Shown here in pieces: positions 15,968 to 43,865 of a stretch of DNA of 64,000 nucleotides. Each line of letters starts with the position of its first letter. The first letter of the stretch is position 1. The notes below the pieces were generated by a model. That model did not search any database. It was not told the origin of the DNA and was given only the letters and a program-made list of their open reading frames with translations. This stretch comes from Planctomycetota bacterium (GTDB taxonomy: Bacteria; Planctomycetota; UBA1135), in assembly GCA_045047305.1 (NCBI GenBank), contig JASFYO010000004.1, positions 16,365 to 80,364 of the forward strand, in the 5' to 3' direction. A program made the translations under genes and the position numbers.

Positions 15968-16384
15968 TTAGTGGTTAGATGCCTCAGGCACATGGCTCTC
16001 TTTGATTGCATGCAATTCTTGAGGCTGAGCTTTATCCAAACCAAGGGCATGAATATCGCTTGCCGACTTCGCGCGGATGTCATCTTGGTATTGCTCGGTA
16101 TCCAAAGTTAGAAATGCCAGGAACAGACCTACCAACAAAACAGAGAACAAGAAAATCATGCCGTGGAATGGCCTGTCCCACTTCAAGTGCATGAAAATGA
16201 GGCAGACCAAGCTTGCCTTCACCGTAGCAATGATCAGGGCGACGGACAGGTCCATGCCATAAAGATCAAGCTTTCCAGTGAAAACCGTAAGGGCTGTCAA
16301 GCCAACCAGGGCAAAGAATACTTTGACCAGTAAGCTCAAAGGCAACACATGGCCGAGGTGCGTATCGGAGTTTTGATCGGACAT
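15968..16384 (-). CDS. ctaF: Cytochrome c oxidase subunit IV (caa3-type)
   Basis: IATVKASLVCLIFMHLKW motif; three TM segments; operon position. Confidence 0.82.
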   Translation of the reverse strand: MSDQNSDTHLGHVLPLSLLVKVFFALVGLTALTVFTGKLDLYGMDLSVALIIATVKASLVCLIFMHLKWDRPFHGMIFLFSVLLVGLFLAFLTLDTEQYQDDIRAKSASDIHALGLDKAQPQELHAIKESHVPEASNH

Positions 16385-16386
16385 GA

Positions 16387-17172
16387 TCAGTTAATGAGGT
16401 AAAGAAGTGGGAAGAGGAAAATCCAGATGAGGTCAACCAAGTGCCAATACAATGCGCCGAAATCTATCGCATTGAAATTGGTGGGGCCAAACTCTCCTTT
16501 CATGGTCCTAATTAACAGCCATATCATCAGGATCATACCGATTAACACATGGATTCCGTGTAAACCAGTAAGGCAAAAATACACACCAAAAAAGATGCCA
16601 AGTTTCCGACGAAACTCTGGATCAAGATCCCTTACCGCAACAGTGAACTCACCATTACGGTTGTCCCATGCAGCAGAATGATGCTTCATTTCCGCTGGAA
16701 CATCGTTCGGGTCTAAACGGAAGATGGTGTTGGCATTCCCCGACCACACGGTTCCTTCATGGAACTTGTGCTCATACTCCATTTTCTTAATCGTCATAAA
16801 CCCTCCTGCGCAAAGCAGGGTGATGACCAAATTCATCTTGAGCAGCCCGAGTTGCCCGAGCATGGCGTTACGCACCCCCCAAGCAATGGTGAAGGAGCTC
16901 AACAGAAGCACGATCGTATTGAGCGCGCCCATATTGGTATTAAGAAACTGGGAAGCGTACTGGAAAACCTCTGGGTAGCTCGATCGGTAAATCGCATACG
17001 CCACGAACAAAGCACTGAAAAACATAACCTCGGTTAAAAGGAATGTCCATATGCCAAGTTTGCCGGCGTCGAACTGTTGTTCGAGGCTTTCGAAGTGGTG
17101 CGCAAGATGCTTTGGATGATCGTGGCCGTGGCCGTGATCATCGCCGTGCGCTGCAGTAGTGGTAGTACTCAT
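16387..17172 (-). CDS. ctaE: Cytochrome c oxidase subunit III
   Basis: WTFLLTEVMFF, NTIVLLLSS, TGLHGIHV, YWHLVDLIWIFLFPLLY. Confidence 0.92.
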   Translation of the reverse strand: MSTTTTAAHGDDHGHGHDHPKHLAHHFESLEQQFDAGKLGIWTFLLTEVMFFSALFVAYAIYRSSYPEVFQYASQFLNTNMGALNTIVLLLSSFTIAWGVRNAMLGQLGLLKMNLVITLLCAGGFMTIKKMEYEHKFHEGTVWSGNANTIFRLDPNDVPAEMKHHSAAWDNRNGEFTVAVRDLDPEFRRKLGIFFGVYFCLTGLHGIHVLIGMILMIWLLIRTMKGEFGPTNFNAIDFGALYWHLVDLIWIFLFPLLYLIN

Positions 17173-17179
17173 GGATTCA

Positions 17180-18886
17180 CTATGCGGTTGGCTTCACGTC
17201 TGCGACGCAAGGGGCATCGGCGCGAGGATTGACTGGCAGGAATCCTTCTTCCTCACCTTTCCACTCCACCAATTTCATGTCGTATGGATCCCCCACAACA
17301 GGTGGATCGATTTCAAAGTTGTGCTCCGGAGGAGGTGACGGTGTTTGCCACTCGAGAGTGACACCACCCCAAGGATTCGCTGGTGACTTTTTACCCTTCT
17401 TCAATGACCACAGCAAAGTGCCGAGAGCAATGAACAAGCCTGTCATCAAGACCATGGCTCCGAGAGTCGAAGCTTCGTTGTATCCATCGAAGCCTGCACT
17501 TTCACCATAGCCAGCGTAGCGACGGGGCATTCCTTTGGCGCCGCCAATGAACTGTGGCATGAAGGTCATATTGAAGCCTACGAAGGTCAACAAACATCCA
17601 ATCTTCGACATCATGTTGTCGACCACCACACCATACATTTTTGGCCACCAGTAGAAGATTCCACCGAGGAAACCAAACAAAGCGGAACCCACCATCACGT
17701 AGTGAAAGTGCGCAACTACAAAGTAAGTGTCATGGAAGTAAACATCGGTGCCAAGAGTGGCGAGAAACAGGCCGGTAAGGCCACCGATTCCAAACAGCCA
17801 AATGATCGACATGCCGTAAAGCATTGGCGTCGAAAACGCAACCGACCCCTTGTACATCGTGGCAATCCAGTTAAACACCTTAATCGCAGACGGAATGGCC
17901 ACCGAAAAGGTGAGTGCTGAGAAGATAACCGCCATCAACTCCGATTGACCGGAAACGAACATGTGGTGACCCCAAACGATAAAGGAGAAGATTGCAATCG
18001 CGATAGATGAAAGTGCAATCGACCTGTATCCGAAAATTGGCTTACGGCTGAAGGTTGCGAACAGCTCAGACATCACACCCATGCCAGGGAGAATCATGAT
18101 GTACACGGCCGGATGGCTATAGAACCAGAACAAGTGCTGGAAGAATACTGGGTCGCCACCGAGCTCCGGGGTGAAGATTCCAATATGCATGGTCTTCTCA
18201 ACCAAAATCAGCAACAGAGAGATACCAATCACTGGAGTAGCCAGAATCTGAATCAATGCGGTTGCGTAAATCGCCCACAAGAACAGAGGCATCTTGAACC
18301 AGGTCATCTCCGGCGGACGCATCTTGTGAATGGTCACGATGAAGTTGAGGCCAGTAAAGATGGAGCTAAATCCCAGAATGAAAGCTCCAAGCACTGCGGT
18401 GATGACCGAGTTGTCCGTATGACCAGTGGAATATGGCGGGTAAAAGGTCCAGCCAGTATCTAAGTTGCCGATGAACAAAGTCGTGACAAACAAGATCGCA
18501 CCGATAATCCACAAGTGGTAACTAAATCGGTTTAGCTTAGGGAAGGCCACATCTTTTGTGCCGAGCATCATGGGAACCACAAAGTTTCCAAGTGCCGCGG
18601 GGATCGATGGAATGATGACGAGGAAGATCATCACCGCCCCGTGAACTGTAAATGCGTTGTTGTACGCATTCATTTGTTCCGCGGTTTGCGAAGCGAAATC
18701 GATGTCACCACTGAGCGTGAGGCGAATCTTCATGGCGAAGAATCCCCCAAGCATGAAGCAACCGATTACGGACCATAGGTACATTAGCCCTAGGCGCTTG
18801 TGGTCGATGGTCCAAAACCACGACATGAACCCTTTGGTGGCGTTCAGGTAGTTCGTACGATCCAGTGTATTGGTAGAAGGCGTCAT
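17180..18886 (-). CDS. ctaD: Heme-copper oxygen reductase subunit I, type A2
   Basis: All six His ligands present: [14 protein letters not shown] (YS motif = A2), WGHHMF, VAHFHYV. Confidence 0.96.
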
Positions 18887-18894
18887 GGGTTTGC

Positions 18895-19905
18895 CTAGTT
18901 CTTCAGCGACTTGATGTAAGCGATGAGGAAACTTATCTCATCGTCGGTGAGTTGTCCTGCGAAGGAGTTCATACTCACACCTTCAAATCCAGAAACAATT
19001 TTGGCGTTGGGGTCCAGTAAGGATTCCCGAATGTAGTTGTCATCGACAGTGACAGAAGTGCCATCCGCCAAGGATTCCACCGTTCCGTACTTGCCATTCA
19101 ATGCTGGTCCAACCTTGGCACTTCCATTTGTGGTGTGACATGCTTGACAGTTACGGTCAAACAGAATCTTTCCTGCTTCGCTTGGGGGCAATGTTGCCAG
19201 GTCTACTTTTTGACTCTCCAACCAAGCTGCGAAATCCTCTTCGGTCTTCACTACAACTTTGGCAAGCATGCGGGAGTGACGAGTGCCGCAATACTCTGCG
19301 CAATAGATTGGGAACTCGCCGAGTTCAGTAGCCTCAAACCAAAGGTAGGTATAGCGACCAGGGACGACATCCATCTTCACGCGGAAGTTTGGAATGAACA
19401 AGGAGTGAAGTACGTCGGCTGACTCCAAGCGCATACTGACCGTACGGCCGAGCGGAACGACTAAACCTTCTCCGCCATCATGCATGTCAATGTTGCCACC
19501 GAAAGACTCCACGCGTTCCGGATAAACGAACTTCCAATCCCACTTCTTGGCCTTTGCCTGAATTTCGTAAGCATTGGCAGGAACCCGACGCACCTGTACA
19601 TAATCCTGGAATCCGTACCAAAACATGGCGACCATGAAAAGGGATGGAATCACAGACCACACAATCTCGATGCTAGTCGAGTGATGCGGGGAATCCTCGG
19701 GGTTCAACCCCACCTTTCCACGACGGTATTTCACTGCAAAGATTACCGTTGCTAAAACAATGGCAATAAACGCAAACAGCGAAACGTAGAAGATGAAGTA
19801 GTAAAGTTCATCCACCATGCTTGCGCCGCGCGCAGCTTGGGAGGGGAACCAGAAATCCTCTTGCGTATGCTGAAGGAGTGTAGGAAGTAAGGCAACGGGA
19901 ATCAT
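18895..19905 (-). CDS. ctaC: Cytochrome c oxidase subunit II with fused cytochrome c (caa3)
   Basis: DVLHS and CuA motif [13 protein letters not shown]-terminal CQACH heme motif. Confidence 0.94.
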
Positions 19906-20735
19906 GCCGCTGTGTTCTTTCGGACTTTGCGTTCGAGCAAGATGAGTTTGCCAACGAACGCGAAAAGGATCACGGCGACCAAAGTCATCACGATCTTAGT
20001 TATCTTCCATGCGTCTCCCACGAAAGTGCCAGATGCTGCGTCGTATAGAAAACAACGCAAAATCAGAGCATCAACGGTCGAAACGTATTTGGAGGAAGCA
20101 GTTTCTGCAAGCGAAAGTCGCAGAGTCGAAGGCAAGTATTCAATACCATAAAGGTACCGAGCGACCTTGCCTTGCGGGTCGAGGAGAGTAAGTACAGCAG
20201 TATGCGCGTACTGACCTTTATCCTCGAAGGAGTTGTAATGAAAGCCGATGATGTCGGCGAGCCGGCGGATATCTTCGTTCTTGCCACGGAGGAAGGACCA
20301 GCCTTCTTCCACTTGAGGACGATCGTATCCAGACAATGTTTTACTGCGGAAGCCTGCGGCTAAGTCATCGGACTCGGTTGGGTCCAAACTAACCGTAATT
20401 ACACGGAACTGCTCGCCTACCGACCATTGGTCCATCTGGTTCAGAGTGTTCACAAAGCCGCTCAACTGCAAACCGCAAAGTTGCGGACAATTGGCATAGT
20501 TCATGGTAAGCACAGTTGGGCGCTCGCCATCAAACAAATCGCCAAGGCGAACCGTTTCGCCCTTAGAGTTGCGGAACTCCATGTCCAGCGGCACTTGCGC
20601 ACCAAGCTGTTCCTCGACTCCCACACCTTCCATATCCTTGCTTTGCCTATCGGCAACTTGCGCGGACAACGGTGCCCCTATTCCTAACGCCAAAGCGACA
20701 AGAATACCGAGGGCCGGGTAACGGGAGGTTTTCAT
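19902..20735 (-). CDS. SCO-family copper chaperone
   Basis: CPQLC (CxxxC) plus conserved His (YAHT); signal peptide and C-terminal TM. Confidence 0.88.
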   Translation of the reverse strand: MKTSRYPALGILVALALGIGAPLSAQVADRQSKDMEGVGVEEQLGAQVPLDMEFRNSKGETVRLGDLFDGERPTVLTMNYANCPQLCGLQLSGFVNTLNQMDQWSVGEQFRVITVSLDPTESDDLAAGFRSKTLSGYDRPQVEEGWSFLRGKNEDIRRLADIIGFHYNSFEDKGQYAHTAVLTLLDPQGKVARYLYGIEYLPSTLRLSLAETASSKYVSTVDALILRCFLYDAASGTFVGDAWKITKIVMTLVAVILFAFVGKLILLERKVRKNTAA

Positions 20736-20742
20736 TTAAAGG

Positions 20743-20985
20743 CTAGCGCGCGTAACGCTTCAGGATGGTTGCGCGTGCCGTTTCAGTGTCCGCAACTTCC
20801 TCTGCCGAAGCTGCGTCAGCCTGTTCCACAACCGTGGCAGCCAGCTTGCGTTCAGAAACAAGTTCCGTATTGTGAAAGAAATCTAGGCCGGTGACGGCGT
20901 AAGAGATTGCGATGGTGAGAATGGTTCCAATCAGTCCAATCCGGACCAAGTGGCCTACGTCGATGTCGTCGTGCTGGGTAGCCAT
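20743..20985 (-). CDS. Small single-TM protein, possible ActG-like accessory subunit
   Basis: 80 aa, one TM helix, start overlaps the actF stop; position matches small ACIII subunits. Confidence 0.45.
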   Translation of the reverse strand: MATQHDDIDVGHLVRIGLIGTILTIAISYAVTGLDFFHNTELVSERKLAATVVEQADAASAEEVADTETARATILKRYAR

Positions 20986-22370
20986 TAGATGTTGCGGAAG
21001 CGTAGGGACTTAGCCAGCAATGGATCACCGACTGGAAGAAGTGCTTGCTTGGCGGAACGACGTGCAACGCCGAAGACCATGACACCAAACATTCCAACAA
21101 CAAGGCTAACCTCCATGATCCCAAATGGGTTCTCGAAGCCAACTTCGCTGCGATGGTAGTTTGGCATCACCAGCCAATACATGTCGAGGAATTGCATCGT
21201 CAACATGTAATAAGCCCAACCCAAAAGGATATTGGTATTGCGCTTCACATGCCGTGAAAGCAACCCACCGAACGGGATGATGAGATGGAATACCAACAGA
21301 CACCAAGTCCAAGTGCTCCATCCTGCGGTGAGGCGAGCCCCGTAGAAGGCGGTTTCCTCAGGAAGGTTGGCGTACCAGATCAACATGAACTGGGAGAAAG
21401 CGATGTAACCCCAGAAGAAGGTGAATGCAAACAACCATTTACCAAGGTCATGGTAATGCTCATCATGAATGACTTCTGTAAGCAGACCATTTTTCTGACA
21501 ATACTTTGCCATGATGATGATCCAAGCAACTGAGCTCAAAAACGCGCCGGCAAAGATGTACACACCGAAAATCGTACTGAACCAAGTTTCATCGAGCGAC
21601 ATCAATAAGTCGAAGGAAGCGAAACTGATGGTAAAAGCGAAGATGATGATGGTGACAGCACTCTTCCGCTTCACGGCAAGAGTTGGGTCGTAATTTGGAG
21701 CCGTATCCTGCTCTACAGACTTCTTATAGAAGTAACGCGACAGCAACATCCAAATCAGGAAGTATGCGAGTAAACGCCCAGCAAAGAACTTTCGATTCAG
21801 GAATGGAAACTTGTGCTCAACAAATTTCGTGTGTTCCGCATGAGCAAGTTTTTCCGCATTGCTGTGACCACCCTCGCCGGCATGTTGCTCAACAACAACG
21901 CCTTCAACAGCGTGACTTACTTCAGAAACATCTGCTGCAGCATCATGAGCTACCTCGTCAACTGCGATGACCGCACCATGTTCATCGTGGCCCATGGTTG
22001 CCCATTTCCACACGCTAACATCGTCGCTAAAGAGAGGGACCAAAAGTGGAAGCGCGAATAACGCTACCAATGGCATGTTCGCCATGCTCAATTCTGCCAA
22101 ACGACGCACAGTCACGCTCCAGTGAGCATTCACCATGTGCTGGAGGACGCTGAAGAACATGCTGCCCAAAGTAATGGTCAGCAAGAATGCAAACGCCACC
22201 AGATAGGCGAACCAGAAGTGAGTGTGTCCATCTTCTGCCCCATTCATGAACCCCAGCATGGCACCAACGCCAAGGCCGAGTATGGCAAGAAGCAAGCCTA
22301 GCTGGGTCGCCTTTTGCGCGACGTCCCCGGCTTGGTTATTACCTTTGAGATTAAGTTTTTCGAAACTCAT
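20985..22370 (-). CDS. actF: Alternative complex III membrane subunit ActF
   Basis: Polytopic; WSVTVRRLAE, FDLLMSLDETWFSTIFG, FSQFMLIWYANLPEE. Confidence 0.9.
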   Translation of the reverse strand: MSFEKLNLKGNNQAGDVAQKATQLGLLLAILGLGVGAMLGFMNGAEDGHTHFWFAYLVAFAFLLTITLGSMFFSVLQHMVNAHWSVTVRRLAELSMANMPLVALFALPLLVPLFSDDVSVWKWATMGHDEHGAVIAVDEVAHDAAADVSEVSHAVEGVVVEQHAGEGGHSNAEKLAHAEHTKFVEHKFPFLNRKFFAGRLLAYFLIWMLLSRYFYKKSVEQDTAPNYDPTLAVKRKSAVTIIIFAFTISFASFDLLMSLDETWFSTIFGVYIFAGAFLSSVAWIIIMAKYCQKNGLLTEVIHDEHYHDLGKWLFAFTFFWGYIAFSQFMLIWYANLPEETAFYGARLTAGWSTWTWCLLVFHLIIPFGGLLSRHVKRNTNILLGWAYYMLTMQFLDMYWLVMPNYHRSEVGFENPFGIMEVSLVVGMFGVMVFGVARRSAKQALLPVGDPLLAKSLRFRNI

Positions 22371-22380
22371 GGTTTCAGCC

Positions 22381-23874
22381 CTACTTCTGGGTCTTGAGGT
22401 ATTCGATGAGATCCGAAATCTCTTCGTCGGTCAGAGGGTCACCAGCAAGAACCATGGCACCCTTGATGGCGCCTTGGCGAGTCTTAGCCGGTGGGTCGAG
22501 AATCGACTCTTTTATGTAGGCCTCATTTGCAATGATGGTGTCGCCAGTATCGAGCGTTAGCTCCGAGCCAAGCAAACCATTCAGCGGAGGGCCGACGAGT
22601 GGGGTTCCATTCAAACTGTGACATCCCACACAGGTTTTCTGCGTGAACAGAATCTCACCGCGAGAGGCTGCACCGAGGGCTGCCATTTCTTCCGGAGAGA
22701 GTGCGTTCATCGCTTCGACTTCTTGTAGAACGCGCAAGTAGGCGATGATGGCCCAGCGGTCTTTGGCCGGGATCTGTGCCGCGTAACTAGGCATGGTGCG
22801 ACGCCCATTTGAAATGGTTTCAAAGATTAAGCCGTCCGCCTGTTTTGCAATGAGGTCCACCGTAAGGTTGGTTGGAGGAACCCAAGTTGCGTGGCCGATG
22901 TCTGCCAACTTCATCGCGCGATGATGAATCAGACCTTTGCCTTTTCCATCCTCACCGTGACAAACTCCACAGTAGATTTCGAAGCGTTCTTGACCGCGAT
23001 CAAGAAAGGCCTCAGTAACTTCCACCTGCGGAGGGAAGCTAGTGACGTACTCGCCATTCTCTTTCCCCGTTTCTAGAGAAGCGTGAATGAAGCGCTGATC
23101 TTGTGCAATGGTGCCAACAAGCTGATCGCGGGTCATGCGCCCATCTTCAAACAACGTGGTTTCACCTTGCGCACGGAAACGATCCTGCTTGTCCATGTCT
23201 GGAATCAAGTGAACCCGAGGCTTCGTGGTGGTGCTTCCGTAAGAAGCATAGACCATGGCTGGCGGGACGAGCATCAAACAAGCAACCACCCAAAGGTTAC
23301 CCTTGATTTTTGCTGGTAGCACACTTGGCTCGCTGGCCTCGAAGACTTCCTCGACTTGCAGAGCGCCAATCTCATTTAAAAGTGCCGTAGAAGAAGCGAG
23401 GTCGAACTTCTTGTCCTTGGCGTGCAAGGCAATGAAGAAGCTATCGTCGGTGGCGTGGGCAAAACGCTCGTTGCGGAACAACGGGTGGTACCAGCGTGGT
23501 AGACGGTTCGCGATCCACATTGAGAAAAAGGCTGTGAATGCCGCAAACAGAACCGTCATTTCAAAAATGATCGGGATGTTTGCTGGCAACGACCAAACCG
23601 GTTTACCGGAAATATCGTAGGTGTAATCCACAGCGTTGGTCCAATACTGAAGGTACATACCAGCAAGAAGACCGGTGATACCCATGATGAGGATGACCCA
23701 AGGCAAACGCGTGAAGCGAATACCCATGGCATCGTCTAATCCGTGTACTGGGAAAGGTGAGTGGCAATCCCACTTCTTGTAACCAGCATCGCGGACTTTT
23801 TCAGCAGCACGGTAAAGCGCAGTGACATCTTTGAATTCAGCGACTACGCCGTAAAGTTCTTTGTCTGCAGTCAT
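22381..23874 (-). CDS. actDE: ActD-ActE fusion with an additional C-terminal cytochrome c domain
   Basis: N-terminal DUF3341-type (SPFPVHGLD, IIFEMTVLFA); ActE-like DMDKQ...CGVCH...MPSY; second heme motif CVGCH. Confidence 0.85.
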   Translation of the reverse strand: MTADKELYGVVAEFKDVTALYRAAEKVRDAGYKKWDCHSPFPVHGLDDAMGIRFTRLPWVILIMGITGLLAGMYLQYWTNAVDYTYDISGKPVWSLPANIPIIFEMTVLFAAFTAFFSMWIANRLPRWYHPLFRNERFAHATDDSFFIALHAKDKKFDLASSTALLNEIGALQVEEVFEASEPSVLPAKIKGNLWVVACLMLVPPAMVYASYGSTTTKPRVHLIPDMDKQDRFRAQGETTLFEDGRMTRDQLVGTIAQDQRFIHASLETGKENGEYVTSFPPQVEVTEAFLDRGQERFEIYCGVCHGEDGKGKGLIHHRAMKLADIGHATWVPPTNLTVDLIAKQADGLIFETISNGRRTMPSYAAQIPAKDRWAIIAYLRVLQEVEAMNALSPEEMAALGAASRGEILFTQKTCVGCHSLNGTPLVGPPLNGLLGSELTLDTGDTIIANEAYIKESILDPPAKTRQGAIKGAMVLAGDPLTDEEISDLIEYLKTQK

Positions 23875-23885
23875 CGTTTTTCCTC

Positions 23886-25271
23886 CTAGTGATCGTCGAG
23901 GTGAGGATGAGCCTGAGGCATGACGTTCTTGACTTCCGAGAGCGCAACCTGTGGCAGGTAGCGACAGAAGAGCATGAACAGAGTGAAGAAGAGACCGAAG
24001 CTACCCATGAGGGTGAGAACGTCGACCCAAGTCGGGCTGAAGTAATGCCAGCTCGAAGGTAGGAAGTCGCGGTTCAACGAGGTGACCACAATCACAAAGC
24101 GTTCAAACCACATACCAATGTTGACGAAGATCGACATGATGAAAACCAACGGAAGGTTGCGGCGTGCTTTCTTGAACCAGAAAATCTGTGGTGAAAGAAC
24201 GTTGCAGCTGACCATGATCCAGTAACCCCACCAGTAAGGACCGAAGGCGCGGTTGACGAAGGTGAAGCCCTCGTAAGCATTGCCCGAGTACCAAGCCATG
24301 AAGAATTCCATGGAGTAGGCGTATCCAACCATCATCCCGGTTGCCATGATCACCTTACACATGTTGTCGATGTGTCGCAGGGTAATCAGCTCCTCGAGGT
24401 GGAACATCTTGCGTGCCGGAATCGAGAGTGTAAGCACCATCGCGAAACCGGAGAAGATTGCACCCGCAACAAAGTAAGGTGGAAGAATCGTGGTGTGCCA
24501 ACCGGAAAGTTGCGATGTCGCGAAGTCAAATGACACGACCGAGTGCACGGAAAGTACCAGTGGCGTAGCGAGTGCTGCCAAGATGAGATAGACGCGCTCA
24601 TAGCGATGCCAGTGACGGTTTGATCCGTTCCAACCCAAGGCAAACAAGCCATACCAAAACCTCTTGGCTTTTGTCTTTGCACGATCACGCACCGTAGCGA
24701 GGTCAGGCACGAGGCCCATGTACCAAAAGAGAAGCGAGACGGAAAAGTAAGTGGAGACCGCAAAAACATCCCACAGCAGTGGCGAACGGAAGTTTGGCCA
24801 CATCGACATCTGGTTCGGAATCGGGAACACCCACCAAATCACCCAAATACGACCGACGTGAATCGCCGGGAACATACCTGCACAGATGACCGCGAAAATC
24901 GTCATCGCTTCCGCAAAGCGGTTAATGCCAGTTCGCCAATCCTGACGGAAGAGAAACAGCACAGCCGAAATCAGCGTACCCGCGTGACCAATACCAACCC
25001 AGAACACGAAGTTCACGATTGGCCAGCCCCAAGCAACTGGCTGGTTGTTACCCCAAACACCAACACCCGTGGTGATGAGATAGACAATCATGGCGCCAAG
25101 CACACCCAAGAAAGCGACCGCAATGGTGAAGATGATGTACCAAGACTTTGGTGGCTTGGGAGCTTCAAGAACTCCACAGACCATTTCGGTTACGGTGTGA
25201 AAATCGTTTTCACCTTGAACGAGTGCTTCAGGGAAGATGTCTCGCTCGTCAACAGGAGTTGCATTAACCAT
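23886..25271 (-). CDS. actC: Alternative complex III quinol-oxidising subunit ActC (NrfD family)
   Basis: [52 protein letters not shown]. Confidence 0.95.
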
Positions 25272-28260
25272 GGCTGACGACCTCCTCAGATACCGCGACG
25301 GTTTCTAGCGAAGGATGTGGATTGCGGATGCGCGCAAGGAAGGAGATCCGCGGTTTGTTGTTCAACTCCGGGAGCAGCTTGTAGGCGCGGTCATCGGCCT
25401 GGGTCTTGAGAACCCGACTGCCTTTATCGAGAAGATCACCAAAGGTGATGGCATCTGCTGGACAGACTTGCTCACAAGCGACCTGAACCACCCCATCTTG
25501 AATGCGTGTTTCGCGCTCAGCATTGCGGGTATCAATCCGCGCACGCTCGATGCGTTGCACACAGAAGGAGCATTTCTCCATCACACCGCGGGAGCGCACC
25601 GTTACGTCTGGATTCGCTGCCATGGCAAGGACTTCGTTGCCAGGCTTGGCCGCATCCTTGTTGAAGTTAAAGAAGTTGAAGCGGCGCACTTTGTATGGGC
25701 AGTTGTTTGCGCAGTAGCGCGTGCCGATACAACGGTTGTAAACCATGTCGTTAAGGCCTTCCTGACTGTGCGTTGTTGCAGCTACCGGACAGACGCTCTC
25801 ACATGGTGCCAACTCGCAATGTGCGCAGTTGATGGGCTGGTTGATGGCCGTTGGATTCTCGACGTCGCCGAGGAAGTAACGGTCCATGCGAATCCAAGCC
25901 ATCTCGCGGCCGCGAAGCACTTGCTCCTTGCCGACCACAGCAACGTTGTTCTCAGACTGACAAGCAATGGTGCAGTTTCCACATCCAGTACAAGATGCCA
26001 AGTCAATCGACATCCCCCACTTGTGGTCCGTGACCTTGTCCTTATCTAGCTCTTGCCACAGAGTCGTCTCTGAACCCCAGTAATCTGCTGCCGCCTTGGC
26101 GAACAGTGGATCCTTCTTGAACTCGGACAAGGAACCTTCCTTCACCAATTCCGGCAGACGCTCTTGCGTTCCTTCCGCACCAATCGCATCCATCGCAAAG
26201 TGATCCTGCGTGGTGGCGAGGCGGTAATGGCCTTTCGTTGCAGTGACGTTCACCGCAGTGAGGTCCATGGCATCGGAACCGCGCAAACTGAAGGTGTTAA
26301 AACCAACAGGCTCAATCGCATCGTCGTTGAGACCCGCGACGTGACCGGCATCGGTGCGTCCGTAACCGTAGGCGAGGGTAATCGAATCGTCGGCGTGCCC
26401 CGGCATTAGGTAGACCGCGACCTCGAGGGTGCGACCGTTCACCTCTAGCTTGACCATGCCTTCGTGGTTTACGCCAAGACGCTTGCCAGTAGCAAAGGAC
26501 ATGAGTGCTGCGTTATCCCAAGTGAGCTTGGTCATTGGGTCCGGCAACTCTTGCAACCAACCAAGGTTGGCGTAGCGGCCATCGCGAATCGCGAAGTGAG
26601 GCGTGAAACGAAGCTCCATGCCCTCCGCTACAGGTGCGAGGTCCGGCAACGAAGCCAGGCTCACCTTCAATGCAGTGGCGGATGAACCTGCAATTATTCC
26701 ATCGAGCAGAGCGTTATGCCAAGCGCTATCGGAGAGGCCAGCGGTTTGGCGAACTATGTCCATCGACGACTCGTGCTTGCCGAGCATCATGGAAATCATT
26801 TCGCAAGCCGATTTGCCCTTCCAAAGAGGAGTAATCAGTGGCTGACCAATCGAGCGAGTGCCGTCGGCGCCAAGGCCATCGGTCCAAGCTTCGAGGTCAT
26901 GCGCCATCGGCATGTGATAAGAACACTTGCGCGAGGTCTCATCGCGGTACTCACTGAGGTGAATGCTGTTGGTAACTTTGCCCAGCGCCGCGCCAAACTC
27001 AAGGTCGGCAGGCATGGTGAAGGTTGGGTTGCCACCAAGAATGACGAGATTCTCAATCTCCCCGGCATTCATTTTGCCAACGAGAGCCTTGACCGCGCCC
27101 ATTCCAGAACCGACGGCGGTTGCAGGGAGGTAATTCACGGTGCGACCAAGCGCGCCGATTTGCACGTTCAATGCTGCGACGTGCGCGTGGACTTCTGCAG
27201 GCTGGTTCGGGCCACAAGTAAGAACAGCTGCGCCCTTATTGTGGTTCAGGTCATCGACCAAGGCATCGAGGAAGGCATCGGCGCCTTTCGCGTCAAGCAC
27301 TGGGGCAGAACCACCATTCAACTTCGCGCTCAGAGCAGTAACAAAGCTACCGATGTCCGAGGAACGCAAAGGAAGGCGGTGATCCGCAAAACCACCGGTG
27401 ACGGTGAAGTTTGCCTCAATCGAGTAGATGCGGCTCATCCACTCAGCGTTCGGCTTGCGCTTAGCGGCAGCCTCACGGGTTAGGCGAACCGCAGATGGGC
27501 CTTCGGTCAAGAAATCGTCATCCAGTGCGACAATAATCTTGGCATCGGCCATGTTGTAGTAAGGACGCGCCGCCTGGTTAAAGGCAAGACGACAACCCTC
27601 CACTTCGGCGCTGCGGTCGTTAGCGGAGTACTCGACCCAAGTTGCCGACGGGTGCGCCTGCATAAACGCAGCCTTCATCCGAGCGATACTTGGAGAAGTG
27701 GTTGGCTCGGAAAGAACCGCAACCTTTGCTCCAGCGCCACTGTTTTGGATGCCGCCAAGTGCAGCCTTAACCGCATCAACGCTGACATCGCTTTCGACGC
27801 CATCGGTGTAGCTTGCGGCAGAGCGACTGCGGTCTGGATCGTAGAGACCCAAAGTTGCAGCCTGCGCGGTTGCCGAAGTCGCTCCCAGCGATTCCGGATG
27901 CCCAGTGTTACCTTCAATCTTGGTTGGGTGGCCGTCGAAGCTAGTCACCATGACGCCTTCCGCAAAACCATCTCGGTTAAGAATGGTTGCGAATGCGCGT
28001 GGTGTGCCCGGAACGGTTCCCGGAGTGCGGGAAACTACAGGCAGTAGCTTTTCCTGGTCCCAACGACAACTTGCAGTAGCAAGGGCAACTGAAGCACCCA
28101 TCAACTGCAAAAAGCGGCGACGTGAAGTTTGTGTCCATTCCTCTTCAGGCTCAGACTGGAACTCGTTGGCCATCAGCTCTTTGAACTCGGTCGTTTGACC
28201 AAGGTCGTTGAGGCTGCGCCAGTAACGTTTCGTAGATGCGGAACGATTCATCGGTGACAA
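25264..28260 (-). CDS. actB: Alternative complex III subunit ActB (molybdopterin-oxidoreductase-like domain plus Fe-S domain)
   Basis: YWRSL, Tat motif SRRRFLQ, Fe-S motifs [43 protein letters not shown]...C...CP. Confidence 0.95.
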
Positions 28261-28898
28261 GTAGTGCAGTCTTGGCGTGGGTGGATGTGGTTTTCTTCCA
28301 TGAGACGTTCGCCTAACTCGAAGCGGTCTTCATGAGTTTCCCAACCGAGGTCGGTAACCAACTCGCGGGGGCGCAAGTGGGTTTGTGGTTCACGGTGACA
28401 CTCAAGGCACCATCCCATGGAAAGCGGCTCTTCTTGACGTACGCGCTCCATCTGGTCAACGCGGCCGTGGCATTCGACACAACTGACGCCGGCACTCAAG
28501 TGAGCGCTGTGATTGAAGTATGCGAACTCAGGAAGGTCGTGTACGCGCACCCACTCCACAGGCTTGCCCGTTTCCGCACTCTCGAACAGCGGCTTCAAAA
28601 GCGGACTGTCGGTGCGAATGCTCTTGTGGCAGTTCATGCAAGTTGAAGTTGGAGGGATCGCAGCCATCGCACCCTTCTCAACGGTGTTGTGGCAGTAGCG
28701 ACAGTCCATCTCCAATTCACCTGCGTGAAGAGCATGACTAAATGGGATCGGCTGTTCCGGCGCGTAACCTACGTTGAGGTTCTCAGCCGAAAATGCATAA
28801 GCCATCAAAACCACCGCGTAAACGGGGATTAAGATTGCTGCGAAACCCATGACTGGACGAATCGAATCCGTCCACCGTGGAAAGTGGTAGGCACTCAT
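28248..28898 (-). CDS. actA: Alternative complex III pentaheme cytochrome c ActA
   Basis: One TM, QPIPFSH, five CxxCH motifs (CRYCH, CMNCH, CVECH, CLECH, CTTCH). Confidence 0.93.
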   Translation of the reverse strand: MSAYHFPRWTDSIRPVMGFAAILIPVYAVVLMAYAFSAENLNVGYAPEQPIPFSHALHAGELEMDCRYCHNTVEKGAMAAIPPTSTCMNCHKSIRTDSPLLKPLFESAETGKPVEWVRVHDLPEFAYFNHSAHLSAGVSCVECHGRVDQMERVRQEEPLSMGWCLECHREPQTHLRPRELVTDLGWETHEDRFELGERLMEENHIHPRQDCTTCHR

Positions 28899-35104: not shown

Positions 35105-35725
35105 CTAGGGCTTGCCCCTCAAATCCAGCTTGAACCCACCATCGACAGTGTCTACATGCACCATAAAGGTCATCGGAACCCAATTTCCTCGATCTACCCT
35201 GGGCTGTTCCCAAACTGGCAACGGCATATCAAGCCACACACTCCAAGCGAGCATTCTGCCCAACTGCACTTCTTCCTGGCCCATGTCATCAAAAAATGGG
35301 TTGTGAACAAAGGACGGGCAGAAAAACCGATACTCTCCAGGCCGCACTATCCAGCGTTCAAGCTGACCGGGCGATGGCGGAAAACCGCGCTCAAGTTGAG
35401 CTTCTGAGAGCCCTTCCCCCCAGATTTCACTGCCACTGCATCCAACTCTAGCGATGGCTCCCTCGCCGCCAATGTCGCTTCCATTTTCATAAGTGATGGT
35501 CCAGGAATCAGCAGTCCGCCATCCACCATGAGTCTCCCACCAAGCAGACTTGTCCGTATCGTTATGTAAGCGAACCAGGATCTCCGGCACGCCGTTGCGT
35601 TCATAAGCGGTCACGTCGGCATCGAAGCCACCAAAGTTACCGCTCTCTTGACCGAGCAAGCGCACTCCCTCTAAAGGCGCTAATAGGTTTGCGAGCAAAG
35701 TCGTCAGCCATAGAAACCATTCCAT
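35105..35725 (-). CDS. Hypothetical exported protein
   Basis: Open frame; likely start ATG 35725 (MEWFLWLTTLLANLLA, hydrophobic) just after the upstream stop; no motif recognised. Confidence 0.5.
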   Translation of the reverse strand: MEWFLWLTTLLANLLAPLEGVRLLGQESGNFGGFDADVTAYERNGVPEILVRLHNDTDKSAWWETHGGWRTADSWTITYENGSDIGGEGAIARVGCSGSEIWGEGLSEAQLERGFPPSPGQLERWIVRPGEYRFFCPSFVHNPFFDDMGQEEVQLGRMLAWSVWLDMPLPVWEQPRVDRGNWVPMTFMVHVDTVDGGFKLDLRGKP

Positions 35726-35732
35726 CTGGCCT

Positions 35733-36143
35733 CTACTCCTCGATGACGTGAGAAGGATGAGAAACCCCAACCTGACTCCCCGCTTGATCACGCCCTATGA
35801 AATCGGCAGCGCCATAACGAATGGATCCGACAAGGATTACGGCGACGATTGCGAGAGCGCCTAGGTTCATAATCAGGTACTGGCGTTCTTTGACCCTACC
35901 TTCCCAAATGCGAACCACGCTATCCACGGTCAGGAGAACCAGAAAAAGGATGGAGCAGATTTCGAACAAATCGTACATCGCGGCATAGGATTCCATCTCG
36001 TTCGTCGGCCGCAGCCAGGGAAACCCGATCGATGCCATGAGGCTAATCACAAACCAGAGAAAGGCGAAAACGATGGCGCCCAATGCCGCCTTACTCATGG
36101 GTACACGGTGTCCGACTGGCCAAATTGTTTTTGAGTCCTTCAT
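35733..36143 (-). CDS. Hypothetical membrane protein (about 3 TM)
   Basis: 136 aa with three hydrophobic stretches; codirectional with neighbours. Confidence 0.55.
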   Translation of the reverse strand: MKDSKTIWPVGHRVPMSKAALGAIVFAFLWFVISLMASIGFPWLRPTNEMESYAAMYDLFEICSILFLVLLTVDSVVRIWEGRVKERQYLIMNLGALAIVAVILVGSIRYGAADFIGRDQAGSQVGVSHPSHVIEE

Positions 36144-36249: not shown

Positions 36250-37656
36250 CTACGAAACCACAGCTTTGCGCGAGCCCCGGTGAAGGAGAACGCCGAGCCA
36301 AATCTTTAGCAGTCGGATGAGGAAGTAGGCTGCAAAGATCCCGCTCGCTGCAAAAATCCAAGGCCCTGCGCTTGTTATCCAAGCTGGGCTGGCGAGGCCG
36401 TCGTAACGGTAGATGGCTGTTCCGGCTCCAGAAATCGTCAGCCAACCAACCAGGCCGATGACACCCACATTCAATCCCTTGATGAGATGGCAGTACCTTT
36501 TGCTGGCGAAAACAGTGGTTTCAACACCCCGACGGGCTTGGATTTCCGACAACATCCAGGTGATGCCAGCGAAAAGTGCCATGCAGTCAATCCCGATTTC
36601 GGCGCCCATTGCGTGCCCCATGACGAGGCGGGTGCCATGGACCAGCGAGTTGATCGGCGGAATGGAAAGGATGAGCGAAGTTCCAAGAATGAAACCGGTC
36701 CACCATTTCGCTGCAGTGAGGAAAGCCTGGATTCCACAGGGAGGAGCTGGCTTGCTTGCCTTCACCATGGCGGTAATGTCCATGATGACACGGAAGAACA
36801 AAATGATCTCCGCCATACTCACCACAAAGCTAATCCACTTTACGGTGTGGCTTTGTGGAAGGTGATAGGTGTGATGCGCAAAGTTGGTGAAGGAGTTCAA
36901 CAAGCCAACTCCAAACAGTGCATAGGCCAAACGTGAATGCGCATAGCGTTCGCAGTTGCTCAACTTGCAACCGACGTAATACAAAGTTCCGTAGACGAAT
37001 AAGTTGAAGCTACCGACAAGAGTCCCAGTCGCCTTCCACTGTAGGCGCATGTCAGTAATCGGTTGGGAGAAGATGTCGGGCATAAGCCAGGCATGTTGTT
37101 CCGCAAAGGTGTAGATAAAGAACAGAGTGCCGATGCCCCACATGGTTGCGTGAATCGGGCGCGACATCAGGCCCTTGCCGAGGTGGCTGTAGAAATTCCA
37201 CGCGAACATCAGCCAACCGAGCATAATCGGGATAGAGAAGATGGGGTGGAAACCCATGTACTCTCGGCCTGATCCAACACCAACCAGCATGGTGCAGAAA
37301 ACGCCGACACCGGCAATCGCCCATGAGATCACTTGAATACGCAGGCGTAGCTTTTCTCCACGTGACATCGGGCCGGCAACATCTTCGAAGAAGCGATGCA
37401 CCACGGCCATGCCTGCGAGCAAAATAAAGACCACCGCAAAGGTAGTGTGCAGCGGCCGTAGTGCAGTGAACTGAATCCCTAAACCCTGCAGAATGGGCGC
37501 CACTTGGGGAATGTAGTAGAAAGCGCCAAGCAGGCCAGCAAGCACGGTAATGCAAATCGACACCACAGCGCCGCGCATAAAGGTAAGTGTGGCGTAGCGA
37601 CGGTTAGGGTCGACATCGAGGGAAGTTGGAGGTTTCACGACTAAAACTCCCACCAT
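36250..37656 (-). CDS. NorB-like heme-copper oxidase superfamily subunit with non-canonical active site
   Basis: About 12 TM; RPLHTT, GREY, NFAHHTY, SMAE, HGTRLVMGHAM align with cNOR NorB motifs, but the helix VI His/Glu and the second helix X His are replaced. Confidence 0.8.
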   Translation of the reverse strand: MVGVLVVKPPTSLDVDPNRRYATLTFMRGAVVSICITVLAGLLGAFYYIPQVAPILQGLGIQFTALRPLHTTFAVVFILLAGMAVVHRFFEDVAGPMSRGEKLRLRIQVISWAIAGVGVFCTMLVGVGSGREYMGFHPIFSIPIMLGWLMFAWNFYSHLGKGLMSRPIHATMWGIGTLFFIYTFAEQHAWLMPDIFSQPITDMRLQWKATGTLVGSFNLFVYGTLYYVGCKLSNCERYAHSRLAYALFGVGLLNSFTNFAHHTYHLPQSHTVKWISFVVSMAEIILFFRVIMDITAMVKASKPAPPCGIQAFLTAAKWWTGFILGTSLILSIPPINSLVHGTRLVMGHAMGAEIGIDCMALFAGITWMLSEIQARRGVETTVFASKRYCHLIKGLNVGVIGLVGWLTISGAGTAIYRYDGLASPAWITSAGPWIFAASGIFAAYFLIRLLKIWLGVLLHRGSRKAVVS

Positions 37657-38459
37657 GGAAGGTTGTCCCAGAAGGCATCGTCGGTGTCTTCTTCGGCAAG
37701 CGCCAGAGCCTCTTCACGATGCTCAGCCAAGAAAGTAATAAAGGCTTGTACCTGAGCGCGCTTTTTTGCGGACAATCCTGAAGGCGGCATAAGCGGCGGA
37801 ACCCCCACCTCTAACTTATGCTGAATTTCCTCCGCGCTTAAACGTGAACCTGAAAGCGATAAATCGGGAGCGCCGATTGCCGATTCGCCGAACAAGACGT
37901 GGCATCCGACACAAGTATAGGAGCGGTAAATTTCAAAACCGCTGATGGCGTCTTCATCGCCCGCGTCCTGCAAAATCTTGTGCACGGCCAAAGTACTTGG
38001 GGAATTCAAGGGATTGCCCGTAGCCGATACACCTCCGCTGCCAGGATTGCGTGCCTGGCCAATACCAGTTTCATTCATCGCACTCAAGAATGCCCACAAA
38101 GCCTGCACCTCTTCCGCGGGCAACTCGAACCTCGGCATTTGCCCTGTTCCAAGAGCTAACTGATTGGCAAGCTGCGGTTGTTGCAAACGAGATGCAACAT
38201 TGGTGAGGTCGGGGCCGAGAAATCCGCCAAAGCCATACATTTGGTGGCAAGCCTGACAGTTGTTCGCCAGCCATACGCGTCGCCCAATCAACTCCTCTCC
38301 TTCCAGGACACGAGTTTCTGTTGGGTCGGCATAAACCAGGTAGGTCTGACTGACGAAACACAGCACGAGGATGCCAAGCATCCAGGCCTTTCCGGTGGGG
38401 CTAATCGTTTGCGCCCAAAAGCCTTCCACCAATTTCGAAGTTTCCTCAGAAGCATCCAT
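37641..38459 (-). CDS. NorC-like membrane-anchored diheme cytochrome c
   Basis: N-terminal TM; GRRVWLANNCQACHQMYGFGGFLGPDLT...MPRF (NorC-like); second CVGCH...APDL...MPP. Confidence 0.82.
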   Translation of the reverse strand: MDASEETSKLVEGFWAQTISPTGKAWMLGILVLCFVSQTYLVYADPTETRVLEGEELIGRRVWLANNCQACHQMYGFGGFLGPDLTNVASRLQQPQLANQLALGTGQMPRFELPAEEVQALWAFLSAMNETGIGQARNPGSGGVSATGNPLNSPSTLAVHKILQDAGDEDAISGFEIYRSYTCVGCHVLFGESAIGAPDLSLSGSRLSAEEIQHKLEVGVPPLMPPSGLSAKKRAQVQAFITFLAEHREEALALAEEDTDDAFWDNLPWWEF

Positions 38460-38639
38460 GAGGGAGAGATTCTAGCAACATTTCAGAATTCACCTTCTTC
38501 GGGAGCTTTCTTGGCCCCACTCAAACGGTTACCAGGATTGAGAATGGAACACCCCTCGTAGATGCAAAGAAGTGAATAGGATTACTATTCTTCAAAGATC
38601 TTTCCAACAGAGGGCCCTCAAATATTTTTGGAGCAAAAT

Positions 38640-41275: not shown

Positions 41276-42072
41276 TTCAATCCTTGGATGAGAGCGTGCA
41301 CCATGTTGGCTGCAGCAACTGCACGATTGCCACGTTCCTGTTGTACCGCAAAAAGGTGCCGGACGAGTGCTGTCCCGACAATCGCGAGGTCCGCATGACG
41401 CACCGCATCATGCACATGTTCTGCACTTCCGATTCCAAATCCAACTGCAATCGGAACAGCGCTTAACTCCCGCGTGCGCTGAATGAAGCTTTGGGTTTCT
41501 TCATCAAAGGAAGTCGATACGCCTGTCACCCCAACGCGGCCAACCACATAAAGGAATCCCCTACTTCGACGCCCAGCTTCCTCCACCCGTGCCTCGGGAG
41601 AAGTCGGTGCCGCAAAAAAGATTGGGCAGATATTGGAACTTGCACATGCTCGTTCTACCGGGGCGCCCTCTTCGAGAGGCAAGTCTGGAATGATCAGCCC
41701 GTCGATGCCAGCAGTGGCCATGTCTTGCACGGTTTGGTCGATGCCATGACGCATCAATGGATTGGCGTAACTCATCAGAACAAGCGGCATATCGCCACCG
41801 GCAGCACGAAAGTTTTTCACCATGTCCAATATGCCGCGTAGGTTCGTGCCTGCATCGAGCGACCGTTGCGCTGCAGCTTGCAAGTGCGGGCCGTCGGCAA
41901 TGGGATCAGAAAACGGAACGCCAAGCTCTACGCATGAAGCCCCTGCCGATTCCATCGCTTGTAACTCGTGCAATGTGCTTTCCAATCCACCTTCACCTGC
42001 AGTGAGATAAGGAGCAAGTCCCCGCGTATTGTTATCGCGTAAATGCTGAGTTAGAGAGACCAAGCGATTCAT
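41272..42072 (-). CDS. trpA: Tryptophan synthase alpha chain
   Basis: [27 protein letters not shown]. Confidence 0.95.
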
Positions 42073-43865
42073 TGTTCTTCTCCCAGTTGCATCACGCTGT
42101 CCAAATCTTTATCGCCACGCCCTGACAAGTTCACTAAGACACGCTTGCCTTGCAGCGCCTCTCGATTTGCAATCACCCAAGCAATCGCATGGCTAGATTC
42201 CAAGGCAGGAACAATTCCCTCTAGCTGCGACAACCGCATGAATGCATCTAGAGCTTGAGTATCGGTTGCCGATTCGTAACGTGCGCGACCAAGCGCATGC
42301 AACGCAGCATGCTCAGGTCCCACCGCAGCATAATCCAAACCCGCACTCACACTGTGTGTGTGAAGGATTTGCCCGTCTTCATCTTGTAGCAACCAAGTGT
42401 GGCATCCATGTAGAACGCCCGGCACTCCACTCGCAAATCGCGCCGCATGACGCCCGCTTTCAATGCCTTCACCGGCGGCTTCCACTCCCACCAGATCCAC
42501 TTGCTCATGTTCCACGAACCCGCGAAAAATACCAATGGCATTACTTCCACCGCCGACACAGGCCACAACCGTGTCCGGTAAGCCGCCGACTTGCGCTTCG
42601 AATTGAGCCACGGCTTCGCGCCCGATCACTTCTTGAAAACTTGCAACCAGCGCAGGGAAAGGGTGTGGGCCAAGGGCACTGCCAAGTAAATAATGCGCAT
42701 CCGGATCACTAACCCACGCGCGCATGGCTTCATTGATGGCGTCCTTCAATGTTTTTTGGCCGTGCTCGACCACAACCACTTTTGCCCCGAGCAACTCCAT
42801 GCGCAGAACATTTGGACGTTGCCGCTCTGTATCCACTGCGCCCATGTAAATCACGCATTCCAGCCCAAGCTTGGCACAAACGGTTGCGGTAGCAACACCA
42901 TGCTGCCCGGCTCCGGTCTCAGCAAGGATGCGTGTCTTGCCCATGCGGGTTGCAAGCAGTGCCTGGCCAAGTGCATTATTCAACTTGTGTGCACCTGTAT
43001 GAAGCAAGTCCTCGCGTTTCAACCAAACGTCGATACCAAGTTCTTCAGAAAGTCGATTCGCAAACGTTAGTGGCGTTGCACGCCCAGCATAATTGCAAAG
43101 CAAATCATCAAGCTCTTCCTGAAAGGATGGGTCCACACTAGCTTCGCGCCAAGCTTGCTCCAGCTCCAACAAGGATGGCATTAATGTTTCCGGCGCGAAC
43201 TGTCCGCCAAACCCTGCAAAGCTTGGCCCCGCGCGTTCTGCATCCAAAGCGGCATGAGCTGAGGTAATGAATTCCTTCACCATAGTTTGATCCTTGATTC
43301 CAGGTTCTGATTCCAAACGACTACTGGCATCGACCCCAAGCGGGCGCACTTGCTGGACGGCTTCCTCTACCCGAGATGCATCTAATCCTCCGGCGAGCAA
43401 ACACGGACCCAACTTCACCAAAGCCGATGCCATGCCTAAATCCACCACTTCTCCACTCCCGCCTGCGAACCCAGGCTTTTCCAGTACAAAACACCGTGAG
43501 ATGTCGGCCCATAGTTGCATTTGATCGGATGCTGCTGCGTCGACTCCAATCCGTCGAAAAATTGGGTATGGAAAATCTTTCCACTCGGCTGCGATTTCGT
43601 TTCCGCAGAGCTGCACAGCATTTGCACCAGTTTGTTTTACCAGTCGCTCCAACGCTTGTGGCGAAGGATCGACGACCACCAACACCTTCCAGATGTCCTG
43701 CGGCACTGCTGCAAAAACTGCACGCGCTGGTTCGGCATCCAAATGACGCGGCGATGCAGCAACATGCACCACTCCCACCGCATCGGCACCGCAGCGCACT
43801 GCAAAAGCCGCATCCTCTGGAGAATGCAAACCGCATACTTTCACCGAAGGCAAGGCTAACGGCAT
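42069..43865 (-). CDS. trpFB: Fused phosphoribosylanthranilate isomerase - tryptophan synthase beta
   Basis: N-terminal VKVCGL...LAGGL...GVDASS; C-terminal [40 protein letters not shown] in one uninterrupted frame. Confidence 0.93.

Follow-up and report, generated by a model that had tools for sequence, protein, structure and literature searches.

The 64,000-nucleotide stretch of a Planctomycetota bacterium genome analyzed here (contig JASFYO010000004.1; hereafter the window, whose positions supply all coordinates) carries on its minus strand two overlapping genes, which encode a membrane-anchored diheme cytochrome c and a NorB-like catalytic subunit of the heme-copper superfamily, here called subunit I. 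Four of the six conserved heme-copper histidines are kept in subunit I; the helix VI histidine is glycine, and the last histidine is methionine. Alignment of homologs indicates that these substitutions are fixed across a whole family and do not reflect chance, decay, or sequence error. The pair is likely a new member of a family already named 'N2O red', the function of which is a proposal. The reading that we favor, and offer tentatively, is that the pair forms a NorCB-like membrane heme complex, a low-flux scavenger fed by cytochrome c that would reduce nitric oxide (NO) at a rebuilt heme b3 site.

Subunit I combines a NorB-like fold with a rebuilt active site

Both open reading frames (ORFs) are intact and overlap by 16 bp, in agreement with an earlier note on this DNA that had described a diheme cytochrome c gene overlapping a NorB-like gene with 12 transmembrane helices (Table 1). 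The true start of subunit I may lie at a GTG six codons later; the Atlas record begins at residue 7. Subunit I matches Pfam COX1 with an E value of 2.3e-16, and its AlphaFold model (117 sequences; pLDDT 90.5, pTM 0.91) has 12 long helices. By fold, this model comes closest to two cNOR structures, 4xyd and 3o0r, and to cbb3 oxidases, at a Foldseek TM of ≈0.78 and Z values of 36 to 38; cNOR NorB and cbb3 subunit I are nearly tied (rows differing by at most ≈1–2 Z). The link to cNOR came from fold search only, as neither the subunit I protein nor its profile matched any PDB entry by sequence. Searches of plasmid sequences with family proteins recovered canonical NorB only, at 22–24% identity. Along its length, the cytochrome c shares 23% identity with the canonical diheme NorC of the same genome, and a partner with two CxxCH motifs adjoins subunit I in 37/37 loci (this locus and duplicate pairs counted). 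The two hemes of the partner, which the earlier note took to be distinctive, are not so: the ordinary NorC of the genome is diheme too, and the partner in the Bacteroidota branch of the family is monoheme.

Residues were mapped through a MAFFT alignment of subunit I to annotated plasmid NorB proteins and to the same genome's own NorB. For the histidines, we used the Pseudomonas aeruginosa numbers of the earlier note (H60, H207, H258/H259, H347, and H349). The numbers for R134, E135, E138, D198, V206, E211, E215, S277, and E280 are from PMC3431322. Relative to cNOR, subunit I retains H70 (the low-spin histidine), R131/E132 (R134/E135), D202 (D198), H261/H262, S280/E283 (S277/E280), H340, and H348. 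Among these are equivalents of all the NorB landmarks that the earlier note had listed as kept (H60, E135, H258/H259, E280, and H347), including Glu135, a Ca2+ ligand of cNOR (PMC3431322). The helix VI histidine is replaced by G211, E211 by a one-residue gap (or by Gly if aligned gap-free), E215 by N218, E138 by G135 (the Glu is kept in the Bacteroidota branch), and the second low-spin heme histidine by M350. The same note had read the helix VI histidine and E211/E215 as lost and HGH as HAM, with the low-spin histidine as methionine, and the alignment bears out both; the motif positions that it gave also hold, at 37003–37041 (QWK...N), 36865–36885 (NFAHHTY), and 36607–36615 (HAM). Ligation by M350 would give a His/Met low-spin heme. 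In an alignment with A- and C-type sequences, subunit I has no cross-link tyrosine of either type, and the invariant Y222 and Y264 sit away from those positions; nor does it have the helix VI histidine and helix VII tyrosine of the C family (cbb3).

Table 1 Features of the gene pair and of its predicted promoter, by position in the window
Feature	Position	Strand	Remarks or conservation
Predicted extended −10 element TGCTAGAAT	38469..38477	-	9 nt upstream of the ATG of the cytochrome c gene
NorC-like membrane-anchored cytochrome c, diheme, 272 aa	37641..38459	-	two CxxCH; ORF intact
CxxCH motifs of the cytochrome c: CQACH (residues 68–72), CVGCH (183–187)			M108 and M224 as probable Met ligands
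NorB-like catalytic subunit I, 468 aa, 12 membrane helices	36250..37656	-	ORF intact
His70, predicted low-spin heme b ligand	37447..37449	-	504/505
Arg131-Glu132 of GREY; E132 corresponds to the Ca2+ ligand Glu135 of cNOR	37261..37266	-	E in 501/505
Glu186, family-specific invariant, end of helix V	37099..37101	-	505/505
Rebuilt helix VI QWKATGTLVGSFN: K208, G211 (His position), N218 (E215 position)	37003..37041	-	
Helix VII N254...N258-F-A-H261-H262-T-Y264, two remaining distal His	36865..36897	-	H261 503/505, H262 503/505, N254 484/505
Glu283 (equivalent to Glu280 of cNOR), candidate for the third ligand of the distal metal	36808..36810	-	486/505
H348-A-M350: predicted heme b3 proximal His, and Met for the second low-spin heme His	36607..36615	-	H348 505/505, M350 504/505

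The substitutions are conserved across a large family

In an alignment of 505 homologs, which includes duplicates and near-identical members and from which four frameshift-like rows were dropped, position 208 is Lys in 486, His in 17, and Gln in two; position 211 is Gly in 486, Asp in 18, and Arg in one, with no histidine in any sequence; and N218 is found in 501. Q206, W207, K208, G211, N218, H348, and M350 are invariant in 121 close homologs, which settles in the affirmative whether the QWK...G...N and HAM motifs are conserved, a matter that the earlier note had raised. That note had also suggested that nearby EQH, HTYH, or GAE residues supply further ligands. Of these residues, only E186 is universal; H188 and H265 are Asn in more than 120 of 126 Bacteroidota-branch sequences, and E353 occurs in 229/317 homologs. 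We therefore rejected H188, H265, and E353 as family-wide ligands, these residues being branch-specific or variable.

A well-supported sister clade of 18 members, possibly a further unnamed family, has D211 in 18/18, H208 in 16 (QWH for QWK), Ala or Gly at position 283 in all 18, and the His/Met heme pattern. The main family pairs G211 with E283, versus D211 with A283 in the sister clade (18/18). A carboxylate thus always stands at one of two places beside the histidine pair, which suggests a two-His/one-carboxylate metal site in the family; the pattern represents one evolutionary event.

Using subunit I as the query gave 558 matches among 8000 candidates, a second Planctomycetota member gave 528, and a Bacteroidota-branch member gave 3120. 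At 50% identity, 287 homolog clusters were recovered with E values up to 0.001, the tail of which may include canonical NorB. In some family members, cytochrome and subunit I are joined in one protein (≈800 aa).

The gene pair very probably belongs to the 'N2O red' family

A maximum likelihood tree was built in IQ-TREE from 38 sequences drawn from A-type, C-type, family, cNOR, and qNOR proteins (16 of 54 rows omitted; no sequences of the B family or of the putative NO dismutase (NOD)). Its topology is (A,(C,(family,(cNOR,qNOR)))), with ultrafast bootstrap values of 100 for the family, 97 for the family with cNOR and qNOR, and 100 for the placement of C outside. Subunit I thus falls outside the cNOR clade, in a separate clade sister to cNOR and qNOR, and by alignment it does not match the FeB ligand set of cNOR (three His and Glu211); the view that it is not a standard cNOR holds. 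Its close relatives carry the names of Planctomycetota and Phycisphaerales metagenome-assembled genomes (MAGs). Subunit I groups with Phycisphaerales sequences, and other members of the genome's own family carry a version that is only 34–36% identical, which hints at transfer of the gene between lineages.

Murali et al. 2024 (PMC11214002) describe an 'N2O red' family, 'closely related to cNOR' and branching after the C family, in 293 GTDB genomes. Building on older work with Flexibacter canadensis, they propose that it 'might serve as' an N2O reductase insensitive to sulfide and acetylene, and their preprint agrees. The listed rows of their Dataset S6 place the family in 15/35 class UBA1135 genomes, in SM1A02 Phycisphaerales, in Gemmatimonadota, and in 21/38 Flavipsychrobacter genomes (20/21 without and 1/21 with cNOR). 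Homologs of subunit I bear these host names, two being labeled Flavipsychrobacter sp. The shared hosts, together with the absence of the A- and C-type His and Tyr residues, assign the pair to 'N2O red' by elimination, and we regard this membership as very probable. None of the 11 representative accessions of 'N2O red' is present in the 30 homolog clusters looked up. The passages of bioRxiv 592808 that we consulted mention no such family.

With this tree position and host range, the earlier note's claim of a candidate new chemistry or family is not supported, and the His-to-Gly and His-to-Met changes may already be displayed in the Murali 2024 supplement. That note had also allowed that the protein might fall within a characterized family, which is half true: 'N2O red' is named, but its role as an N2O reductase is only proposed. 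Outside subscription journals, we found no assay of the family in the literature beyond the proposal of Murali 2024 and its preprint.

Regulation and genome context

A leaderless and probably constitutive transcript of the pair is likely, as judged from the upstream DNA. The cytochrome c gene is preceded by the predicted −10 element but by no Shine-Dalgarno sequence and, with up to one mismatch allowed, no FNR-type box. A TAnnnT element lies 6 to 10 nt before a candidate start in 27/51 Planctomycetota loci (several starts per locus allowed), against 442/28441 random start codons (1.6% per start codon). A strict promoter scan returned 0 sites. An NsrR-type box, in the pattern that we assume for it, is absent from the eight upstream regions searched.

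The genome is 87.7% complete. It contains four heme-copper genes: an A-type oxidase, a fused cbb3 oxidase, a canonical norCB followed by norQ, and subunit I of the pair. The canonical norCB-norQ cluster lies on another contig (G000:C44:6328-12442), encodes a diheme NorC, and has nirK ≈3 kb downstream; nosZ and nirS were not found in the genome. The earlier note's statement that norQ/norD, nir, and nos genes are absent is true of the window, but nirK and norQ are present elsewhere in the genome. Elsewhere in the genome (G000:C1:30949-36271), side-by-side ORFs with 26 and 17 CxxCH motifs form a large multiheme cytochrome pair.

Co-occurrence was counted in 301 genomes of class UBA1135, to which the present genome probably belongs; these are incomplete MAGs whose kin are not independent. 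Removing six weak matches (E above 1e-7) from 75 left 69 carriers of the family. Class-wide, carriage of the family does not exclude nosZ (12/69 carriers versus 28/232 non-carriers) and does not track nir or nor genes; nirS occurs in 1/301 genomes, and qNOR-like genes, sought with a cNOR query only, in 1/69 versus 12/232. None of the nosZ, nir, or nor genes was found in 47/69 carriers, and neither nirK nor nirS in 59/69. Among the 17 class genomes with both nirK and cNOR, five have the family only, two nosZ only, none both, and 10 neither. A search of sequencing runs listed no RNA run and none with half of the words.

Neighbors in the Bacteroidota branch were counted in the best 80 of 549 loci, many of them short. 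A short monoheme cytochrome partner is present in 65/80. RIC (17), Rrf2 (13), or hemerythrin (10) genes together mark 23/80, and a Crp/Fnr gene occurs in 12. Genes resembling nosD, nosY, or nosL are found in 9/80, with a NosZ-sized or cut ORF bearing a CuA motif in three. In 15 Bacteroidota-branch loci, a 415-aa His-rich membrane protein without a Pfam or NCBIfam match (e.g., 1169-2425 in one locus) stands by the pair and RIC/Rrf2; its HAHSH and HLVLLG stretches may point to a degenerate heme-copper or NnrS-like fold. In four loci, two tyrosine phenol-lyase/tryptophanase copies separate the cytochrome c gene from that of subunit I.

A possible role in NO scavenging

If the pair is an NO scavenger, with its cofactors, metal, substrate, and direction of reaction as predicted here, electrons would pass from a periplasmic cytochrome c, or from the alternative complex III encoded nearby, to the two c hemes, next to a His70/Met350 low-spin heme b, and finally to a His348 heme b3. 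Methionine would raise the potential of the low-spin heme; for the His/Met heme of nNOR, the estimate is ≈150 mV (PMC11214002). Protons would enter from the outside through the retained R131/E132/D202 and S280/E283, as in cNOR, and hence no charge would be pumped. At the distal site, H261 and H262 may bind an iron with E283 as the third ligand of a two-His/one-carboxylate center, and K208, N218, N254, and E186 would line the opened pocket. Four-electron reduction of O2 is unlikely because subunit I has no cross-link tyrosine.

Several observations are consistent with this role. The family is sister to cNOR and qNOR, shows no A- or C-type cross-link tyrosine in the alignment, and keeps equivalents of the Ca2+ Glu, D198, S277, and E280. 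The carriage of a carboxylate at either 211 or 283, albeit a single event, suggests a metal site. The His-to-Asp change of gNOR and the His/Met heme of nNOR would serve as precedents, both being considered compatible with NO reduction, although both are predictions (PMC11214002). In the Bacteroidota branch, the RIC, Rrf2, hemerythrin, and Crp/Fnr neighbors suggest a link to NO, as do FNR-type boxes, which precede 11/65 loci versus 90/1600 random windows. Carriers often keep nosZ, so the family is not simply a replacement for it, and the scarcity of nirK and nirS among carriers is more in keeping with a stand-alone scavenger than with a step in a pathway.

A number of points weigh against NO reduction. 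Its main weakness is that subunit I has lost the helix VI histidine and the counterparts of E211 and E215, along with that of E138 in this branch, in a cell that carries a canonical norCBQ as well. Activity of cNOR is described as depending critically on E211 and E138 (PMC3431322). The NO-stress neighbors are seen only in the Bacteroidota branch, at related loci that are not independent, and tyrosine phenol-lyase/tryptophanase genes adjoin the pair in 19/80 of those loci. In the Planctomycetota, no neighbor beyond the pair is conserved in 52 loci, and an FNR-type box precedes the pair in 1/51 and not at this operon, whereas the genome's canonical norC has a perfect FNR-type palindrome upstream. 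Co-occurrence of the family with nirK (9/69 versus 14/232) and cNOR (8/69 versus 20/232) is too weak to count.

Alternative functions

The proposal of Murali et al. that the family is an N2O reductase would here mean a copper-free enzyme in which a reduced heme b3 and a two-His/one-Glu iron site take the oxygen from N2O and release N2. We consider this unlikely, if less so than the other alternatives. A high-potential His/Met heme would suit it, as would a genome with nirK and cNOR in which nosZ was not found, the mutually exclusive distribution of the family and nosZ among the 17 nirK and cNOR genomes, and the lower frequency of nosZ in carriers within family f3 of the class (7/31 versus 21/44 others, kin not being independent). 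Yet there is no exclusion of nosZ class-wide, two of three near-relative genomes have nosZ, and nos-like genes, including the NosZ-sized or cut ORFs, stand beside Bacteroidota-branch pairs. In Dataset S8 (PMC11214002), both nosZ and nosD are recorded for Solitalea (Flexibacter) canadensis, on which the proposal is based, for Flavobacterium croceum, and for C. normanense.

Somewhat less probable again is that the pair assists NosZ or respiration, as an electron conduit or gas-binding protein without a distal metal or as a scavenger of O2 or peroxide. The joint loss of three catalytic residues and the adjacency of nos clusters in the Bacteroidota branch would be explained, as would a promoter predicted to be constitutive and leaderless in aerobic Planctomycetota, 47/69 of which yielded no denitrification genes. 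However, the near-invariant polar pocket (K208, N218, N254, H261, H262, E283, and E186) implies a bound substrate, nosZ was not found in 57/69 class carriers, and the cross-link tyrosine for four-electron O2 reduction is missing.

In cytochrome cd1, a distal pair of histidines binds and protonates nitrite. A membrane nitrite reductase that forms NO, in which a metal-free distal His pair with Lys and Asn would handle nitrite at heme b3, is improbable, even though the invariant Lys and Asn would suit an anion. Dataset S8 (PMC11214002) records cNOR and nosZ, without nirK or nirS, for F. croceum and C. normanense, and most class carriers likewise show no nir gene, but the present genome has nirK, as do F. 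antarcticum and S. canadensis (Dataset S8), and the NO reductase needed to remove the product is mostly missing (eight cNOR and one qNOR-like in 69 carriers). Finally, a decayed or mis-sequenced norB, which would account for the lost canonical residues and nothing else, can be dismissed: the frames are intact, as the earlier note had argued, identical substitutions recur in hundreds of homologs from several phyla, and the genome has a separate canonical norB.

Implications of the family

The family lacks a histidine that is thought to be nearly universal in heme-copper enzymes. Database labels of norB or cbb3 subunit I on so large a family (3120 matches; 69/301 class genomes) inflate counts of denitrifiers. 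The label 'cbb3-type subunit I' on homologs at NCBI is automatic, and we rejected it, the cbb3 His and Tyr not being found. If NO reduction is correct, the family would represent a fourth way of building a NOR site. If N2O reduction is correct, the enzyme would be made irrespective of oxygen in marine Planctomycetota and Bacteroidota that live aerobically; it would complete the genome's nirK-cNOR path without NosZ and be a second biological N2O sink, invisible to nosZ surveys. The family is already named and has cultured carriers, such as Solitalea canadensis and Flavobacterium croceum; what this locus adds is mainly the residue map and the sister clade with its swapped carboxylate, along with genome counts that argue against simple replacement of NosZ.

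Other genes in the window

The pair is flanked on one side by a sulfatase-family gene and on the other by a lipoyl synthase/2-oxoacid dehydrogenase block. About 8 kb away lies what we take, from motifs, to be an alternative complex III and A-type oxidase cluster (15971-28898, minus strand). Its alternative complex III-like genes encode a pentaheme cytochrome, a 998-aa molybdopterin/Fe-S subunit, and membrane subunits, and continue directly into a gene for a Sco-like protein and those for subunits II, I, III, and IV of the A-type oxidase. Helix VI of this oxidase reads WFYSHPAVY, with Ala at the Glu of the usual motif. Downstream of the pair (35105-36143), two small minus-strand ORFs (136 aa, membrane-like, and 228 aa) match no family above the cut-off and show no synteny in relatives; the pair itself occupies different sites in close genomes. 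A 598-aa ORF in the trp operon (42069-43865, minus strand) looks from its translation like a TrpF-TrpB fusion.

Comparison with known systems

The two branches of the family differ in partner and pocket: the Planctomycetota branch has a diheme partner with H188/H265, and the Bacteroidota branch has a short monoheme partner with, mostly, Asn at both positions. Six conserved histidines are the rule in the superfamily, to which gNOR, nNOR, and NOD are published exceptions (PMC11214002, PMC3413370). On the basis of active-site residues, partner type, and the tree (without B-family or NOD sequences), we rejected membership of subunit I in nNOR, gNOR, NOD, or cbb3. It resembles nNOR in its predicted His/Met low-spin heme (M350), but nNOR keeps a cNOR-type active site, has a CuA-type subunit II, and is of B-family origin, whereas the pair has a cytochrome c partner. 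As in gNOR, one active-site histidine is replaced; in gNOR the replacement is Asp, in a protein of B-family origin with a CuA-type subunit II. As in NOD, one metal-ligand histidine and the catalytic glutamate are replaced (PMC3413370), yet NOD derives from qNOR, consists of one subunit with a His-to-Asn change, and has no electron entry, in contrast to the diheme cytochrome c and His-to-Gly change of the pair.

The likeness to the cNOR NorCB of P. aeruginosa (3o0r) and R. denitrificans (4xyd) is closer, extending to the order of a cytochrome c gene followed by a 12-helix subunit, the NorC-type cytochrome c subunit, the fold, and the equivalents of H60, R134/E135, D198, H258/H259, S277/E280, and H347. 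Subunit I departs from cNOR in the residues at the helix VI histidine (Gly), E211 (gap or Gly), E215 (Asn), E138 (Gly), and H349 (Met), in its 22–24% identity, in having no adjacent norQ/norD, and in its separate clade. The closest correspondence is with 'N2O red', which likewise lies near cNOR in the C-family branch, is without the active-site tyrosine, and occurs in matching hosts (PMC11214002).

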